DNA of 64,000 nt. Origin: Escherichia coli (GTDB taxonomy: Bacteria; Pseudomonadota; Gammaproteobacteria; Enterobacterales; Enterobacteriaceae). The stretch lies in the NCBI RefSeq assembly GCF_046105845.1, contig NZ_CP151004.1; one strand, 5' to 3'. Of the stretch, positions 1 to 56,979 are shown in pieces. Numbering within the stretch: the stretch's first letter is position 1; every line of letters begins with the position of its first letter. Below the pieces are notes generated by a model. The model did not search any database, was not told where the DNA came from, and saw nothing but the letters and a program-made list of their open reading frames with translations. The translations under genes were made by a program, and so were the position numbers.

Positions 1-1226
<1,226 letters not shown>

Positions 1227-1409
1227 TCACAACCCGAAGATGTTTCTTTCGATTCATCATCGTGTTGCGAAAATTTGAGAGACTCACGAACAACTTTCGT
1301 TGTTCAGTGTTTCAATTTTCAGCTTGATCCAGATTTTTAAAGAGCAAAACTTCGCAGTGAACCTTTGCAGGTACACTCTGAAGTATTTTTTATTTAATCA
1401 CTACAGAGA

Positions 1410-1485
1410 TGGTGGAGCTATGCGGGATCGAACCGCAGACCTCCTGCGTGCAAAGCAGGCGCTCTCCCAGCTGAGCTATAGCCCC
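1410..1485 (-). tRNA. alaT: tRNA-Ala (anticodon UGC), 16S-23S spacer tRNA
   Basis: Reverse complement reads GGGGCTATAGCTCAGCTGGGAGAGCGCCTGCTTTGCACGCAGGAGGTCTGCGGTTCGATCCCGCATAGCTCCACCA, 76 nt with CCA end. Confidence 0.95.
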
Positions 1486-1527
1486 ATAACATGTAGTTAA
1501 AACCTCTTCAAATTTGCGGTGCAAATT

Positions 1528-1604
<77 letters not shown>

Positions 1605-1672
1605 GTAGAGGTTTTACTGCTCATTTTCATCAGACAATCTGTGTGAGCACTGCAAAGTACGCTTCTTTAAGG

Positions 1673-3214
<1,542 letters not shown>

Positions 3215-7773: not shown

Positions 7774-9963
7774 ATGCTTTACAAAGGCGACACCCTGTAC
7801 CTTGACTGGCTGGAAGATGGCATTGCCGAACTGGTATTTGATGCCCCAGGTTCAGTTAATAAACTCGACACTGCCACCGTCGCCAGCCTCGGCGAGGCCA
7901 TCGGCGTGCTGGAACAGCAATCAGATCTAAAAGGGCTGCTGCTGCGTTCGAACAAAGCAGCCTTTATCGTCGGTGCTGATATCACCGAATTTTTGTCTCT
8001 GTTCCTCGTTCCTGAAGAACAGTTAAGTCAGTGGCTGCACTTTGCCAATAGCGTGTTTAATCGCCTGGAAGATCTGCCGGTGCCGACCATTGCTGCCGTC
8101 AACGGCTATGCGCTGGGCGGTGGCTGCGAATGCGTGCTGGCGACCGATTATCGTCTGGCGACGCCGGATCTGCGCATCGGTCTGCCGGAAACCAAACTGG
8201 GCATCATGCCGGGCTTTGGCGGTTCTGTACGTATGCCACGTATGCTGGGCGCTGACAGTGCGCTGGAAATCATTGCCGCCGGTAAAGATGTCGGCGCGGA
8301 TCAGGCGCTGAAAATCGGTCTGGTGGATGGTGTAGTCAAAGCAGAAAAACTGGTTGAAGGGGCGATGGCGATTTTACGCCAGGCCATTAACGGCGACCTC
8401 GACTGGAAGGCGAAACGTCAGCCGAAGCTGGAACCGCTAAAACTGAGCAAGATTGAAGCCACCATGAGTTTCACCATCGCTAAAGGGATGGTCGCACAAA
8501 CGGCGGGGAAACATTATCCGGCCCCCATCACCGCAGTAAAAACCATTGAAGCGGCGGCCAGTTTTGGTCGTGAAGAAGCCTTAAATCTGGAAAACAAAAG
8601 TTTTGTCCCGCTGGCGCATACCAACGAAGCTCGCGCACTGGTCGGCATTTTCCTTAACGATCAATATGTAAAAGGCAAAGCGAAGAAACTCACCAAAGAC
8701 GTTGAAACCCCGAAACAGGCCGCTGTGCTGGGCGCAGGCATTATGGGTGGCGGCATCGCTTACCAGTCTGCGTGGAAAGGCGTACCGGTTGTCATGAAAG
8801 ATATCAACGACAAGTCGTTAACCCTCGGCATGACCGAAGCCGCGAAACTGCTGAACAAGCAGCTTGAGCGCGGCAAGATCGATGGTCTGAAACTGGCTGG
8901 CGTGATCTCCACGATCCACCCAACGCTCGATTACTCTGGTTTTGACCGCGTGGATGTTGTGGTAGAAGCGGTTGTCGAAAACCCGAAAGTGAAAAAAGCC
9001 GTACTGGCAGAAACCGAGCAGAAAGTACGCCCGGATACCGTGCTGGCGTCTAACACTTCAACCATTCCTATCAGCGAACTGGCCAACGCGCTGGAGCGTC
9101 CGGAAAACTTCTGCGGGATGCACTTCTTTAACCCGGTCCACCGAATGCCGTTGGTAGAAATTATTCGCGGCGAGAAAAGCTCCGACGAAACCATCGCGAA
9201 AGTTGTCGCCTGGGCGAGCAAGATGGGCAAAACGCCGATTGTGGTTAACGACTGCCCCGGATTCTTCGTTAACCGCGTGCTGTTCCCCTACTTCGCGGGT
9301 TTCAGCCAGCTGCTGCGCGACGGCGCGGATTTCCGCAAGATCGACAAAGTGATGGAAAAACAGTTTGGCTGGCCTATGGGTCCGGCATATCTGCTGGACG
9401 TTGTGGGCATTGACACCGCGCATCATGCCCAGGCTGTCATGGCAGCAGGCTTCCCGCAGCGGATGCAGAAAGATTATCGCGATACCATCGACGCGCTGTT
9501 TGATGCCAACCGCTTTGGTCAGAAGAACGGCCTCGGTTTCTGGCGTTATAAAGAAGACAGCAAAGGTAAGCCGAAGAAAGAAGAAGACGCCGTCGTTGAC
9601 GACCTGCTGGCAGAAGTGAGCCAGCCGAAGCGCGATTTCAGCGAAGAAGAGATTATCGCCCGCATGATGATCCCGATGGTCAACGAAGTGGTGCGCTGTC
9701 TGGAAGAAGGCATTATCGCCACTCCGGCAGAAGCGGATATGGCGCTGGTCTACGGCCTGGGCTTCCCTCCGTTCCACGGCGGCGCGTTCCGCTGGCTGGA
9801 CACCCTCGGTAGCGCAAAATACCTCGATATGGCACAGCAATATCAGCACCTCGGCCCGCTGTATGAAGTGCCGGAAGGTCTGCGTAATAAAGCGCGTCAT
9901 AACGAACCGTACTATCCCCCGGTTGAGCCAGCCCGTCCGGTTGGCGACCTGAAAACGGCTTAA
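7774..9963 (+). CDS. fadB: fatty acid oxidation complex alpha subunit (enoyl-CoA hydratase / 3-hydroxyacyl-CoA dehydrogenase)
   Basis: Translation from [32 protein letters not shown]... recognised as FadB (729 aa); track ORF is N-terminally over-extended, start set at ATG 7774. Confidence 0.93.
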
Positions 9964-11136
<1,173 letters not shown>

Positions 11137-11142
11137 CCACTT

Positions 11143-11255
11143 GCCGGATGCGGCGTGAACGCCTTATCCGGTCTACCGATCCGGCACCAATGTAGGCCTG
11201 ATAAGACGCGCCAGCGTCGCATCAGGCATCGTGCACCAATTGCCGGATGCGACAT
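11143..11255. repeat. REP/BIME cluster (about three REP units)
   Basis: GCCGGATGCGGCGTGAACGCCTTATCCGGTCTAC, GTAGGCCTGATAAGACGCGCCAGCGTCGCATCAGGC and a further GCCGGATGCGACAT unit: canonical enterobacterial repetitive extragenic palindromes. Confidence 0.8.
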
Positions 11256-11296
11256 AGATCTAAATGCCACTGAATAAAGTTTTAGTTGCCGTTCTT

Positions 11297-11321
11297 CCCG
11301 CCTGTCAGGGGCGGGTTTTTT
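11297..11321 (+). terminator. rho-independent terminator (fadBA operon end)
   Basis: GC-rich hairpin CCCGCCTGTCAGGGGCGGG followed by TTTTTT on the + strand; lies just beyond the fre stop on the other strand. Confidence 0.6.
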
Positions 11322-11326
11322 ATATC

Positions 11327-12028
11327 TCAGATAAATGCAAACGCATCGCCAAACAGGCGATCTTCCCGCGCATTACGCTCACTGCAAAACAGGTCACGGG
11401 CAATTTTCGCCATCTCAAAACGTCCGGCAATATAGATATCATGCTCTGCCAGCGTACCGTGATCCTGCAATACCGCCGTTAACACAGTGCCAGTACGCCC
11501 ACGCCAGCCCGCTTCCGGTTGTTCAACCACCGGCACCACTTGCAGACCAGGATGCTTAAGCGAAAGCGCCTCAAGCTCGGAGAGATCATAAAGATGCTGC
11601 TCTTCACGCCCGCCCCAGTAAATGGTGATATCACGGTTTGGGTTACGCGCCAGCGCCGTCAGCAAAATCGAGCGCGCATAAGAGAACCCGGTGCCACCCG
11701 CAATCAAAATCATCGGACGTTCTTCATCATCGCGCAGCCATGCCTCACCGTGCGGAATATCGACCACGATTTGATGATCTTTAAGAATGCGGTCCATGAC
11801 TGCTTTCGCGTAAAGGTTGATTTCAGAAGCGCCAATATGCAGCTCGATGAAACCTTTTTCATCCGGCGTCGAAGCCATTGAGAACGGACGTTTGTCGCGC
11901 TCATCCATCACTACCATCAAATACTGACCAGCACGAAAAGAAAAGGCCGCGTCTGGTACGATTCGGACACGATATACGGTATCCGTGATAGCTTCTACCG
12001 AGGTCACTTTACAGCTTAAGGTTGTCAT
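11327..12028 (-). CDS. fre: NAD(P)H-flavin reductase
   Basis: Translation [40 protein letters not shown]... recognised as Fre (233 aa); start set at internal Met of the track ORF. Confidence 0.92.
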
Positions 12029-16688: not shown

Positions 16689-18931
<2,243 letters not shown>

Positions 18932-29493: not shown

Positions 29494-30114
29494 ATGACCT
29501 TAGAATGGTGGTTTGCCTACCTGCTGACATCGATCATTTTAAGCCTGTCGCCAGGCTCTGGCGCAATCAACACCATGACCACCTCGCTCAACCACGGTTA
29601 TCGCGGCGCGGTGGCGTCTATTGCTGGGCTTCAGACCGGACTGGCGATTCATATTGTGCTGGTTGGCGTGGGGTTGGGGACGCTATTTTCCCGCTCAGTG
29701 ATTGCGTTTGAAGTGTTGAAGTGGGCAGGCGCAGCTTACTTGATTTGGCTGGGAATACAGCAATGGCGCGCCGCTGGTGCAATTGACCTTAAATCGCTAG
29801 CCTCTACTCAATCGCGCCGACATTTGTTCCAGCGCGCAGTGTTTGTGAATCTTACCAATCCCAAAAGTATTGTGTTTCTGGCGGCGCTATTTCCGCAATT
29901 CATCATGCCGCAACAGCCGCAGCTGATGCAGTATATCGTGCTCGGCGTCACGACTATTGTGGTCGATATTATTGTGATGATCGGTTACGCCACCCTTGCT
30001 CAACGGATTGCTCTATGGATTAAAGGACCAAAGCAGATGAAGGCGCTGAATAAGATTTTCGGCTCGTTGTTTATGTTGGTGGGAGCGCTGTTAGCATCGG
30101 CGAGGCATGCGTGA
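29494..30114 (+). CDS. rhtB: homoserine/homoserine lactone efflux protein (LysE family)
   Basis: 206-aa membrane ORF recognised as RhtB. Confidence 0.93.
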
Positions 30115-30122
30115 AAAATAAT

Positions 30123-30152
30123 GTCGGATGCGGCGTAAACGCCTTATCCGAC
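30123..30152. repeat. REP element
   Basis: GTCGGATGCGGCGTAAACGCCTTATCCGAC, canonical REP palindrome between convergent rhtB and rhtC. Confidence 0.8.
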
Positions 30153-30175
30153 TTACTCTGATGACGCGTCTGGCA

Positions 30176-30796
30176 TCAACGCGAAATAATCAAATGAATG
30201 CCAAATCCGGCAAATAACGCCCCGGCAAAACCATCAATCCACTTCGCCAGACGTTGATAACCACGGCGCATTTGCGGCAGGGCAAACAGGCTGGCAACGA
30301 CGGTAAACCACGCCAGTGTTTCGATAATAATCAACGCGAAAATGCCCCAGCGCTCAGTGGTGCCGACGTTATCGCCGACAAACAGCGAGAATACCGAACC
30401 AAAGTAGATAATCGCTTTCGGATTGGCGAGATTGGTCAGTAAGCCTTTCAGGAAACTGCGCCCGCTTTTTGCCAGCTCAACCTGTGGTGCAGGCGCAGAA
30501 ACCGCCTCTTTTTTCAGTGCACCGCGTAGCATCTGGTAACCCATCCAGCAGAGATACAGGCCACCGCCCACCATAATCAGCGTATGCAGCCAGGCCATTT
30601 TTTCGATAATCAAATGTAGGCCAAGCAACGCAATCCCAGCCCAAACCATTACGCCGCAGGTAATGCCCAGCACGCCCATCATCGCTTCTTTACGGGAACG
30701 ACTGACAGCGGTCTGAGAGACAAAAAAGAAATCGGGACCGGGGCTCATAAGCGCCACAATGTGCACCATGGCGACGGTGAGGAATAACATCAACAT
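30176..30796 (-). CDS. rhtC: threonine efflux protein (LysE family)
   Basis: 206-aa membrane ORF recognised as RhtC. Confidence 0.93.
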   Translation of the reverse strand: MLMLFLTVAMVHIVALMSPGPDFFFVSQTAVSRSRKEAMMGVLGITCGVMVWAGIALLGLHLIIEKMAWLHTLIMVGGGLYLCWMGYQMLRGALKKEAVSAPAPQVELAKSGRSFLKGLLTNLANPKAIIYFGSVFSLFVGDNVGTTERWGIFALIIIETLAWFTVVASLFALPQMRRGYQRLAKWIDGFAGALFAGFGIHLIISR

Positions 30797-39206: not shown

Positions 39207-39237
39207 GCGGAATGCGGTGTGGCGCACCGCATTCCGC
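39207..39237. other. perfect 13-bp inverted repeat (stem-loop) between convergent DUF62 gene and uvrD
   Basis: GCGGAATGCGGTG-tggcg-CACCGCATTCCGC; no flanking T-run on either strand. Confidence 0.6.
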
Positions 39238-52773: not shown

Positions 52774-52980
52774 AAAAAAACGCCTGCTCTTATTACGGAG
52801 CAGGCGTTAAAACAGGTCTGTATGACAACAAGTGGGTGCTTCACTCAACGTTGTGTCCATGGTGTCTGATGAGGCATAAGCGACATCTGTCAGTGGACGA
52901 TAAGCACCGTAAACGGCTCTGCGTCATTCCGGAGTTTATGAGGCACTAAGGCGAACATAAGAGATGGAATGAGCATCTAC
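52774..52980 (-). ncRNA. glmZ: GlmZ small regulatory RNA (SraJ/RyiA), activator of glmS translation
   Basis: Minus-strand sequence from GTAGATGCTCATTCCATCTCTTATGTTCGCC... to the terminator hairpin AACGCCTGCTCCGTAATAAGAGCAGGCGTTTTTTT matches GlmZ as I recall it; lies in the hemY-aslA intergenic region where glmZ is known to map. Confidence 0.85.
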
Positions 52981-53404: not shown

Positions 53405-55060
53405 ATGGAATTTTCGTTTTCACCCAAACTTCTTGTTGTGGCTGTCGCCGCCGCTCTTCCACTCATGGCCAACGCAGCAGATACCCCGTCAACCGCCACC
53501 GCACGCAAAGGCTTTGCCGGATACGATCACCCAAACCAGTATCTGGTTAAACCGGCGACCACTATTGCCGACAACATGATGCCGGTGATGCAGCATCCTG
53601 CACAAGACAAAGAAACCCAGCAGAAGCTGGCAGAACTTGAGAAAAAAACCGGTAAGAAACCGAACGTGGTTGTTTTCTTGCTGGATGATGTGGGCTGGAT
53701 GGATGTTGGCTTTAACGGCGGCGGCGTGGCGGTGGGTAACCCTACACCAGATATCGACGCCGTTGCCAGCCAGGGGCTGATTTTAACTTCGGCGTATTCT
53801 CAACCGAGTTCTTCCCCAACCCGCGCCACGATTCTTACCGGGCAATACTCCATCCACCACGGCATTCTGATGCCGCCAATGTACGGGCAACCGGGCGGTC
53901 TGCAAGGGTTAACCACTCTGCCGCAGTTGCTGCACGATCAGGGCTACGTCACTCAGGCCATCGGGAAATGGCATATGGGGGAAAACAAAGAGTCGCAGCC
54001 GCAGAACGTTGGCTTTGATGATTTCCGCGGTTTTAACTCGGTATCCGATATGTATACCGAATGGCGTGATGTTCACGTCAACCCGGAAGTCGCCCTGAGC
54101 CCGGATCGTTCTGAATACATCCAAAAACTGCCGTTCAGCAAAGATGACGTTCATGCCGTGCGCGGCGGTGAACAGGAAGCCATTGCCGACATTACGCCGA
54201 AATATATGGAAGACCTGGATCAACGCTGGATGGAATATGGCGTTAAGTTCCTCGACAAGATGGCGAAGAGCGATAAGCCTTTCTTCCTCTACTACGGCAC
54301 TCGCGGCTGTCACTTCGATAACTACCCAAATGCGAAATATGCGGGTAGCTCTCCGGCGCGCACCTCTTACGGCGACTGCATGGTGGAGATGAACGATATC
54401 TTCGCCAATCTGTATAAAGCACTGGAGAAAAACGGTCAGCTTGATAACACGCTGATTGTGTTCACCTCTGATAACGGTCCGGAAGCCGAAGTTCCGCCGC
54501 ACGGTCGCACACCGTTCCGCGGTGCGAAAGGTTCTACATGGGAAGGCGGCGTTCGTGTGCCAACCTTCGTTTACTGGAAAGGCATGATCCAACCGCGTAA
54601 ATCTGACGGTATTGTCGATCTGGCGGATCTCTTCCCAACCGCGCTGGATCTGGCGGGGCATCCTGGAGCGAAAGTGGCGAATTTAGTGCCGAAAACCACC
54701 TTTATCGATGGTGTGGACCAGACATCCTTCTTCCTGGGAACAAATGGTCAGTCTAACCGTAAGGCCGAGCACTACTTCCTCAACGGCAAACTTTCTGCTG
54801 TGCGTATGGATGAGTTCAAGTATCACGTCCTGATCCAGCAACCGTACGCGTATACCCAGAGCGGGTATCAGGGTGGATTCACCGGTACAGTAATGCAAAC
54901 GGCGGGATCGTCGGTGTTTAACCTGTACACCGATCCGCAGGAAAGCGACTCCATCGGCGTGCGCCATATCCCAATGGGTGTACCGCTACAGACCGAAATG
55001 CATGCGTATATGGAGATCCTGAAAAAATATCCACCACGCGCGCAGATTAAATCTGATTAA
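53405..55060 (+). CDS. aslA: arylsulfatase-family sulfatase AslA
   Basis: 551-aa ORF with signal peptide and sulfatase signature ([19 protein letters not shown]-x-P-x-R type motif), recognised as AslA. Confidence 0.93.
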
Positions 55061-55096
55061 GCCGGCGCTATCGCTACATCGGGCCACACTGACCTT

Positions 55097-55126
55097 GCCG
55101 GATGCGGCGTGAACGCCTTATCCGGC
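55097..55126. repeat. REP element
   Basis: GCCGGATGCGGCGTGAACGCCTTATCCGGC between convergent aslA and aslB. Confidence 0.8.
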
Positions 55127-55138
55127 AATCAACCGCAG

Positions 55139-55163
55139 GCGGCCACAAAATGGCCGCTTTTTT
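55139..55163 (+). terminator. rho-independent terminator after aslA (overlaps aslB stop)
   Basis: Hairpin GCGGCCACAAAATGGCCGC followed by TTTTTT. Confidence 0.55.
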
Positions 55164-56397
55164 ACTTATTCACCACCATCAAATGCGCCTGCATAATGTC
55201 GCTGGCCGGACGACCGTGCGCCAGCAAATCAGCCATTGCTTTAAGATATGGCGGTAGATGGCGGAAATAACGCTGATACCCGGCACACAAATAATTCAGC
55301 CCAGGTTTGCCGCTGGCATCGAGCATAAAGCGGTGTTTCGGACAGCCTCCCCAGCACGCTTTTAACACGTTGCAACTGCGACACTGCGCCGGTAACTGCT
55401 TAAATTTATCTTCACCAAACACCTGCTGTTGCGGGGAGTCTACCATTTCTGCAATTGTCTGCTGAAGCATATTCCCCAGTCGATATTGCGGATAAACATA
55501 GTGATCGCAGGCGTAAACGTCGCCGTTGTGTTCAACAATCACCGAGCGCCCACAGGTTGGCTGATGATGGCAAACCGCTCCTGGCGCACCGACAAAATTG
55601 GCAAACGCCCATTCGATATTCATCACGAAAATCTTGCCGACGTCGCGTTTGATCCAGTGGTCGAATATCGCCACCAAAAATTCACCGAACTCCTCGGGGT
55701 GTACCGACCATTCCGTCAGTTTGCCCTGAATATCGCCGGGAGCATGTAGCTTAAGTCCAGCATGAACAGCCGTTTCATCAGCCAGGCGTTCGACCACAGG
55801 AATAAACTGGATAAACTCAACGCCTGCATCACACAGAAAATCATAGATTTGCAAAGGTTGTAACGCACAGGTGCGATTAACGCAGACCAGCACGTTATAG
55901 TCGACATGATGTTTTTGCAGGAGCATCAGGGCACGCATCACCAGCTTATGCGTTGGTCTGCCGCCTTTGGTCACGCGATATTGATTGTGGATCTCAGCCG
56001 GACCATCCAGCGATAACCCAACAAGAAAATGATTTTCTGCCAGAAATGCACACCATTCGTCATCAAGCAGCACGCCATTAGTCTGGAAGCTGTTACTTAT
56101 CTTCCTGCCAGCACCATATTTCGCCTGTAGCGCCACGGCACGGCGGTAAAAATCCAGCCCGAGTAACGTTGGTTCGCCACCCTGCCAGGTAAAAGCCACT
56201 TCGTTTTGGGTTTCGCTGGCAGCGATATAGTGACGGACATACGCTTCCAGCGTGTCATCGTCCATATGCGTGACTGGCTTTTCGCTGTAAAGGGATTGTT
56301 TTTCGAGATAAAAACAGTAGTCACAGTTCAGATTACAATCGGAACCGCTCGGTTTCGCCATCACATGAAAAGCACGCGTTGGAACCTGTTGCAGCAT
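55162..56397 (-). CDS. aslB: anaerobic sulfatase-maturating enzyme homologue (radical SAM)
   Basis: Translation MLQQVPTRAFHVMAKPSGSDCNLNCDYCFYLEK... (411 aa) with CxxxCxxC radical-SAM motif recognised as AslB; start at internal Met of track ORF. Confidence 0.9.
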   Translation of the reverse strand: MLQQVPTRAFHVMAKPSGSDCNLNCDYCFYLEKQSLYSEKPVTHMDDDTLEAYVRHYIAASETQNEVAFTWQGGEPTLLGLDFYRRAVALQAKYGAGRKISNSFQTNGVLLDDEWCAFLAENHFLVGLSLDGPAEIHNQYRVTKGGRPTHKLVMRALMLLQKHHVDYNVLVCVNRTCALQPLQIYDFLCDAGVEFIQFIPVVERLADETAVHAGLKLHAPGDIQGKLTEWSVHPEEFGEFLVAIFDHWIKRDVGKIFVMNIEWAFANFVGAPGAVCHHQPTCGRSVIVEHNGDVYACDHYVYPQYRLGNMLQQTIAEMVDSPQQQVFGEDKFKQLPAQCRSCNVLKACWGGCPKHRFMLDASGKPGLNYLCAGYQRYFRHLPPYLKAMADLLAHGRPASDIMQAHLMVVNK

Positions 56398-56542
56398 GGT
56401 CGCTCCTTGCCTGAAGTCATCCTTCAATAAGTTAAGGGCGAAATCATACCGTGGCGCAATGAGTTATTACGGGCGTTTATTGCGAAGGGAAGTGACGAAA
56501 TGCACAGAAAACAAAAAACCCCGCCGAAGCGGGGTTCAAAAT

Positions 56543-56619
56543 TGGTCGGCGAGAGAGGATTCGAACCTCCGACCCACTGGTCCCAAACCAGTTGCGCTAC
56601 CAAGCTGCGCTACTCGCCG
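56543..56619 (-). tRNA. proM: tRNA-Pro (anticodon UGG)
   Basis: Reverse complement CGGCGAGTAGCGCAGCTTGGTAGCGCAACTGGTTTGGGACCAGTGGGTCGGAGGTTCGAATCCTCTCTCGCCGACCA. Confidence 0.93.
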
Positions 56620-56661
56620 AAATACTGCTTTTTGAATTTTTAGTTCAATTCTTTAAAGTCG

Positions 56662-56748
56662 TGGTGCGAGGGGGGGGACTTGAACCCCCACGTCCGTAAG
56701 GACACTAACACCTGAAGCTAGCGCGTCTACCAATTCCGCCACCTTCGC
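56662..56748 (-). tRNA. leuT: tRNA-Leu (anticodon CAG)
   Basis: Reverse complement GCGAAGGTGGCGGAATTGGTAGACGCGCTAGCTTCAGGTGTTAGTGTCCTTACGGACGTGGGGGTTCAAGTCCCCCCCCTCGCACCA, 87 nt class II tRNA. Confidence 0.93.
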
Positions 56749-56768
56749 ATTGTCACAACTTCTAATAA

Positions 56769-56845
56769 TGGGGTGGCTAATGGGATTCGAACCCACGACA
56801 ACTGGAATCACAATCCAGGGCTCTACCAACTGAGCTATAGCCACC
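56769..56845 (-). tRNA. hisR: tRNA-His (anticodon GUG)
   Basis: Reverse complement GGTGGCTATAGCTCAGTTGGTAGAGCCCTGGATTGTGATTCCAGTTGTCGTGGGTTCGAATCCCATTAGCCACCCCA, includes the extra 5' G typical of tRNA-His. Confidence 0.93.
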
Positions 56846-56902
56846 ACTACAAATCTTGTTACGCGGTATTACTACCACCGCAGCTCAAGCGCCGGGACTA
56901 AA

Positions 56903-56979
<77 letters not shown>

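Follow-up and report, generated by a model that had tools for sequence, protein, structure and literature searches.

REP sequences at convergent gene junctions of the window

The window analyzed here, a stretch of 64,000 nucleotides (64 kb) of Escherichia coli DNA, is syntenic with ~3.975-4.038 Mb of E. coli K-12 in the reverse orientation and carries a cluster of REP palindromes between fadA and fre, along with single copies between rhtB and rhtC and between aslA and aslB (Table 1). Genes are named as in the annotations of matching E. coli genomes, and the start of fre was placed at MTTLSCKV, which gives a gene of 702 nt, the same as in K-12. All of the REP units are located between the stop codons of convergent genes, within intergenic gaps of 190 bp (fadA/fre), 61 bp (rhtB/rhtC), and 101 bp (aslA/aslB). 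An earlier sequence-only reading of the window had placed REP palindromes at three convergent gene junctions, and this description was correct for each of the three gene pairs.

Table 1. Coordinates of the REP units, the sequences associated with them, and the flanking convergent genes.
Feature	Positions	Strand	Remarks
fadA (3-ketoacyl-CoA thiolase)	9973-11136	+	ORF; annotation in matching E. coli genomes
Y-type REP	11143-11176	+	GCCGGATGCGGCGTGAACGCCTTATCCGGT followed by CTAC; 1 mismatch to consensus; head-plus-tail scan; DNA/RNA hairpin
Tail-to-tail linker, 15 nt	11177-11191		CGATCCGGCACCAAT; identical in K-12; no IHF motif
Z2-type REP	11192-11227	-	Reads GCCTGATGCGACGCTGGCGCGTCTTATCAGGCCTAC on the - strand and GTAGGCCTGATAAGACGCGCCAGCGTCGCATCAGGC on the + strand; GTAG at 11192-11195 (+)
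Head-to-head linker, 14 nt	11228-11241		ATCGTGCACCAATT
Truncated Y head, 13 nt	11242-11254	+	GCCGGATGCGACA; no 3' arm, runs straight into unique sequence
Intrinsic-terminator-like hairpin and T run	11297-11321	+	Found by terminator scan; ends 5 nt short of the fre stop codon
fre (NAD(P)H-flavin reductase)	11327-12028	-	ORF; annotation; convergent partner of fadA
rhtB	29494-30114	+	Convergent with rhtC
Single Y-like REP	30123-30156	+	GTCGGATGCGGCGTAAACGCCTTATCCGAC followed by TTAC; in the rhtB/rhtC gap; identical in K-12
rhtC	30176-30796	-	Convergent with rhtB
REP-derived perfect palindrome	39207-39237		GCGGAATGCGGTG...CACCGCATTCCGC; convergent SAM-hydrolase gene/uvrD junction, between the two stop codons
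aslA	53405-55060	+	Convergent with aslB
Single Y REP	55097-55130	+	Perfect 30-nt consensus, followed by AATC rather than CTAC; between aslA and aslB
Intrinsic-terminator-like hairpin and T run	55137-55163	+	Follows the single REP; overlap between T run and aslB stop codon
aslB	55162-56427	-	Convergent with aslA

The 30-nt Y consensus GCCGGATGCGGCGTGAACGCCTTATCCGGC was scanned over the 64-kb window with up to three mismatches allowed, and it matched at 11143-11172 (one mismatch), 30123-30152 (three mismatches), and 55097-55126 (none), all on the plus strand and at no other site. At the same tolerance, the consensus found no match in 100 dinucleotide-preserving shuffles of the window. A pattern search of this kind was the check that the sequence-only reading had proposed for itself, and it returned exactly the three sites claimed, both single REPs among them. 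A 13-nt head pattern located a further, inverted head at 11215-11227 and an extra head at 11242-11254. For the inventory of full REP units, both strands were searched with a head-plus-tail mismatch scan, which recovered four units in noncoding DNA in the 64 kb, including the inverted Z2 unit, and no fifth full unit outside of coding sequence. The REP/BIME cluster that had been claimed at 11143-11255 is therefore borne out by both scans and by the shuffled controls, and since it comprises a Y unit, a Z2 unit, and half of another Y unit, the coordinates given for it were accurate. Two matches inside genes were rejected as chance occurrences, one to head plus tail at 8274-8306 within fadB and one to the head, with a single mismatch, at 10634-10646 within fadA; the chance expectation for such 13-mer matches is 0.76 per window.

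The setting of these junctions is that of an E. coli chromosome. The earlier reading took the repeats to confirm an enterobacterial chromosome, and the Escherichia origin is confirmed, as the window found a match in every one of 5,426 complete E. coli genomes except one. Between 4000 and 28000, the best identity among these 5,426 complete RefSeq genomes is 98.7%, with full synteny, and, judged by this best identity over 24 kb, the source is an Escherichia lineage absent from the set, which may be a divergent E. coli or Shigella. The window begins with the end of an rrn operon (1-3214; a partial 23S gene, two tRNAs, and 16S, with a StyR-44 match at 1234-1342) and also contains EsrE inside ubiJ (18326-18577), GlmZ (52774-52980), and a cluster of four tRNA genes (56546-56979; argX-hisR-leuT-proM in K-12), all on the minus strand, and these other RNA genes are as expected from the synteny with K-12.

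The fadA-fre cluster and its family assignment

The terms Y, Z2, and BIME-2 follow the nomenclature of Gilson and Bachellier. REPs are imperfect palindromes of 30-40 nt with a GTAG foot and occur as types y, z1, and z2 (Ton-Hoang et al. 2012, PMC3333891). Their mosaic arrangements are of two kinds, with BIME-1 consisting of z1 and y joined by a long L linker that often contains an IHF site, and BIME-2 consisting of z2 and y separated by short linkers, arranged in tandem in a number that varies between strains (PMC3333891). At the fadA-fre junction, the first REP stem begins 6 nt after the fadA stop codon, and the plus-strand orientation of this Y unit is the one that Ton-Hoang et al. refer to as "iREP" (PMC3333891). 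The Z2 unit has no mismatches in either head or tail and is identical to the first Z2 unit of the K-12 array, and the linker that follows it, ATCGTGCACCAATT, precedes full Y units in K-12 with one base changed. Because K-12 has a complete Y unit after the same linker, the 13-nt head that ends the cluster in the window is a real remnant; it has no fold of its own (DNA folding of 11242-11254) and, as it forms no hairpin, it is counted as a remnant rather than as a unit. A stump of this kind terminates the array in every fadA-fre allele examined and marks the boundary of the BIME. RNA folding of the fadA 3' UTR (11177-11252, plus strand) predicts that UUGCCGGAUGCG of the stump pairs with CGAUCCGGCA of the first linker, giving an outer stem around the Z2 hairpin. 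On this model, the truncated Y head may not be structurally inert. The hairpin and T run located beyond the stump are kept in all six of the six alleles compared and likely constitute the end of the fadBA transcript.

The palindromes are consistently capable of forming hairpins. As DNA, the four full units of the window fold with energies of -9.3 to -13.4 kcal/mol (z = -2.7 to -5.1), the Z2 unit doing so at -11.6 kcal/mol (z = -3.9), and on either strand the 200-nt region 3' of fadA is much more stable than its shuffles (z = -5.2 and -4.6). The four units were aligned with six units from the same region of K-12, which were called by the same scan, as the RefSeq K-12 record contains no REP repeat_region features. 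The consensus of these ten units has 13 base pairs, 5 of which show compensatory double changes, such as G-C to T-A in the Z2 unit and C-G to T-A at the second stem pair of the unit at 30123. An internal mismatch is retained as well, with GC in columns 8-9 opposite TT in columns 24-25 in 9 units, the tenth, from K-12, having CT, and column 9 is unpaired in every fold. The foot that characterizes REPs is intact in the cluster, as CTAC at 11173-11176 and GTAG at 11192-11195, and only partly kept in the single units, which have TTAC at 30153-30156 and AATC at 55127-55130.

A 601-bp query containing the cluster matched at a median of 30 places per genome and at 145,223 places in total across 5,425 E. 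coli genomes, these being copy numbers of other E. coli genomes, as the source genome was counted only within the 64-kb window. With tens of copies per genome, the palindromes belong to a dispersed repeat family. The cluster also has the features by which a BIME-2 is recognized, namely Y units on the plus strand alternating with Z2 on the minus strand, short linkers of 15 and 14 nt, and a number of pairs that differs between strains, and, judged by its sequence, it is a minimal BIME-2 made up of one Y-Z2 pair and a truncated Y head.

Variation of the junctions between strains

The fadA-fre gap occurs in several lengths. It measures 190 bp, with one Y-Z2 pair, in the window and in strain Z1323HEC0462; 180 bp in Ecol_AZ162, which also has one pair, in a different allele; 271 bp in MS20674 and 282 bp in APEC O18, each with two pairs; and 380 bp in K-12, with three. 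Among 59 genomes sampled at regular intervals along the ranking of matches, one pair was found in 37, two in 16, and three in 6. The allele of the window corresponds to the distal part of that in APEC O18, and, compared with K-12, its sequence looks like the product of a deletion between the second Y head and the terminal stump. Variability between strains is itself a known property of BIMEs (PMC3333891).

The junctions with single REPs differ among genomes in other ways. At rhtB-rhtC, where the REP starts 8 nt after the rhtB stop codon, the query was only partly covered in ~12% of E. coli genomes, and in the one example inspected, Ecol_244, the gap (30115-30175 in the window) is filled by a gene of ~1 kb for an Rpn-family recombination-promoting nuclease, with no REP at either edge of this gene. 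At aslA-aslB, where the REP starts 36 nt after the aslA stop codon, K-12 and IAI39 have a BIME-1 (REP, L linker, and Y), and the Y unit of the window (within 55040-55165) is the exact reverse complement of the Y of those two strains; its right flank is shared with them, and its left flank is not. In strain 2017.09.02CC, this junction is occupied by a perfect, fused hairpin. The 3' end of aslA is unmatched in about a third of genomes, and in the one of these that was inspected, aslA breaks off after ~46 codons, where it is fused to the L linker. Because their feet are degraded to TTAC and AATC, the two single units may no longer be substrates of a RAYT, and they may be inert.

The list of REP sites given by the sequence-only reading stands at these three junctions and was incomplete, as it omitted the REP-derived hairpin at a fourth convergent junction (39207-39237). 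This perfect palindrome folds as RNA at about -32 kcal/mol (z = -4.7) and is homologous to the head of a K-12 REP unit at yigE-uvrD. The adjoining gene, located between yigE and uvrD in the segment 38295-39237 that also includes the palindrome, encodes a 300-aa SAM hydroxide adenosyltransferase/SAM hydrolase (PF01887 and PF20257), whose N terminus looks by eye like a signal peptide, and is found in 2,413 of the 5,426 complete E. coli genomes. K-12 does not have the SAM-hydrolase gene and instead carries a BIME-1-like REP pair at yigE-uvrD.

The sites are genuine and ordinary E. coli REP repeats, an already known and textbook architecture. The sequence-only reading had called this ordinary core-genome architecture, which is right for the shared position of the repeats and for the kind of architecture, and not for its structure, as copy number and unit type vary between strains at each of the three junctions. 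That reading had also listed such repeats as occasional targets of IS insertion, and no IS insertion was found at these REP sites in the window.

Alternative readings, proposed roles, and relation to known systems

Several other explanations for the palindromes were weighed. G+C-rich hairpins at the 3' ends of convergent genes would also be expected if these were simply Rho-independent terminators rather than dispersed repeats, and ~40% of REPs between convergent genes are reported to overlap predicted bidirectional terminators (10.64898/2026.03.23.713779). The shared trait does not extend beyond the 3'-end hairpin, however, as no REP unit is followed by a T run, and the terminator scan selected separate hairpins at 11297-11321 and 55137-55163 and nothing at the REP of 30123-30156. 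Tens of copies per genome would likewise not be expected of independent terminators, and we consider this explanation very unlikely. There is practically no chance that the matches are accidental palindromes or parts of small unannotated ORFs. Mechanically called ORFs do overlap the cluster, with one of 45 aa at 11133-11270 on the minus strand and one of 40 aa at 11155-11277 on the plus strand, but the absence of matches in the 100 shuffles, the presence of multiple copies across 5,425 genomes, and the compensatory changes in the stems all argue against this view. In addition, the ~91-98 bp by which the array changes length is not divisible by three, so any reading frame through it would be destroyed.

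Two more readings concern the type of element. A BIME-1 (or RIP, composed of a Z1 unit, an L linker with an IHF site, and a Y unit) shares both the REP family and the kind of location with the window, and it is found in other strains at junctions nearby: K-12 and IAI39 have a REP, an L linker (…GCTGCAATTTATTGAATTTGCA…), and a Y at aslA-aslB, and K-12 yigE-uvrD also holds the BIME-1-like pair. The proposal that the fadA-fre cluster is an element of this type that recruits IHF is nonetheless scarcely credible. The second unit is Z2 rather than Z1, with no Z1 unit at any position of the window, the linkers are just 15 and 14 nt, the L-linker motif GCTGCAATTTATTGAATTTGCA has no match in the whole window with up to three mismatches, and the IHF consensus WATCAANNNNTTR has none in 11100-11330, whereas the IHF site belongs to the L linker of BIME-1 (PMC3333891). 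With neither an L linker nor an IHF motif, IHF binding is not expected at the copies in the window. The last reading is that the cluster encodes an RNA of the naRNA4 (REP325) type, which in the model of Qian et al. 2015 (PMC4550694) bridges REP cruciforms with HU and condenses the chromosome. No Rfam family covers the REPs of the window at gathering thresholds, and in a relaxed scan naRNA4 (RF02564) was the sole resemblance, with 43.4 bits at 11195-11271 on the minus strand (E = 1e-6) compared with a gathering score of 59.5. The K-12 fadA-fre array has naRNA4 matches of 92.1 and 80.2 bits, both above the gathering score, though it is not REP325. The Rfam model is effectively a generic BIME-2 unit (Y hairpin, linker, and Z2 hairpin), and, since it describes a single Y-linker-Z2 unit, the match reflects family resemblance and not a distinct gene. 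The score of the window falls below the threshold because the first hairpin of the model, its Y half, is aligned to the truncated Y head, while the Z2 half aligns almost perfectly; with only one pair and a truncated head, the allele of the window has no intact head-to-head Y-linker-Z2 unit. REP325 itself differs in having six repeats inside the yjdMN operon, as opposed to one pair at a convergent junction, and a study that shares an author with the original one found no measurable nucleoid compaction by REP325/naRNA4 (10.64898/2026.03.23.713779). An naRNA4-type role for the cluster is thus highly improbable.

The best overall explanation, which we hold with high confidence, is that the palindromes belong to the REP family of E. 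coli, with a minimal BIME-2 at fadA-fre, for which dispersal, RNA-level, and gyrase-related roles are inferred. The functional steps considered for this strain are all borrowed from K-12. For dispersal, REP units would have been spread and amplified by RAYT/TnpA-REP. The REP-associated Y1 transposase acts on single-stranded BIMEs, requires GTAG and the mismatch in the stem, and cleaves at iREP and linker sites (PMC3333891). No RAYT gene is present in the window, and none is listed in the syntenic K-12 region at 3.974-4.034 Mb.

As RNA, the REPs would form part of the transcribed fadBA 3' UTR, and their placement within the fadA 3' UTR is indicated by the separate intrinsic terminator downstream, at 11297-11321. 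Transcripts of fre would meet the same palindromes in antisense, as part of the fre 3' UTR, because the hairpin at 11297-11315 has no U run in the fre direction. Within these UTRs, the hairpins would block 3'-to-5' exonucleases and so shield the upstream mRNA, and would partly terminate transcription, in part in a Rho-dependent manner, with raised levels of the flanking convergent transcripts. A dual action of REPs as terminators and stabilizers has been argued to be their primary function (bioRxiv 10.64898/2026.03.23.713779). The same study found REPs in 207 of 704 convergent intergenic regions, both flanking genes then being more highly expressed, and reported that REP effects are strongly context-dependent (10.64898/2026.03.23.713779). 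A REP stem located less than 16 nt after a stop codon is described as stalling terminating ribosomes (Liang et al. 2015, as cited in PMC12306157). By their distances of 6 and 8 nt, the REPs after fadA and rhtB fall within the class reported to slow translation termination, and the aslA REP, at 36 nt, falls outside of it.

At the DNA level, the Y/Z2 pair would be a site of gyrase binding and cleavage that is independent of transcription. Gyrase cleavage sites are over-represented in BIME-2, mostly in y units (Sutormin et al. 2019, PMC6379681). Table DS3 of that study lists "fadA>-<fre" as a BIME-2 of 280 bp in a K-12 derivative, with counts of 0 for Cfx, 1 for RifCfx, 0 for Micro, and 3 for Oxo; this 280-bp allele therefore had no cleavage under ciprofloxacin or microcin, and most short BIME-2 intervals in the table are without a cleavage site (PMC6379681). 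The sequence-only reading had described the palindromes as sites of interaction with both DNA gyrase and IHF. The gyrase part of this claim holds by way of the published K-12 allele of the locus, and the IHF part fails, as neither the consensus nor the L linker is present. By analogy, then, the most likely roles of the cluster would be to block mRNA decay or to act as a partial terminator, and to serve as a gyrase target.

Beyond annotation, the significance of these repeats is slight: they mark the window as Escherichia chromosome, and they flag 3' UTRs that likely bear RNA-stabilizing or terminating hairpins along with a gyrase site. They do illustrate how, at junctions that are otherwise syntenic, the REP/BIME sites are what varies: strains differ there in the number and type of units, in their orientation, and even in which genes lie nearby. 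This is relevant to the current proposal that REPs adjust expression while genes and promoters stay the same. The REP content of a strain's junctions might even act as a heritable noncoding dial that alters the stability of the fadBA and fre mRNAs, read-through, or supercoiling relative to K-12, an idea that we regard as speculative and rather unlikely. The features that would make up such a dial are the single Y-Z2 pair at fadA-fre in place of two or three, the lone inverted Y that replaces the BIME-1 at aslA-aslB, and the perfected hairpin beside the extra SAM-hydrolase gene at yigE-uvrD. If the idea were true, contraction to one pair would leave no intact naRNA4-like unit and would take away most of the target for gyrase.

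Among known systems, the REPIN/RAYT elements of, for example, Pseudomonas consist of inverted pairs of REPs that form a larger hairpin and are presumed to be nonautonomous and dependent on one RAYT gene per genome; their consensus differs between species. A trait reminiscent of REPINs is seen in the window, where the predicted RNA or single-strand fold pairs the truncated head with the first linker around Z2, while the window itself differs in having no RAYT gene. The closest counterpart is the BIME-2 of E. coli, which the cluster resembles in its Y unit with an opposing Z2, its short linkers, its GTAG/CTAC foot, and its extragenic location at a 3' junction. Compared with the BIME-2 at the same locus in K-12, which has three pairs, the allele of the window has one pair and a truncated Y head.
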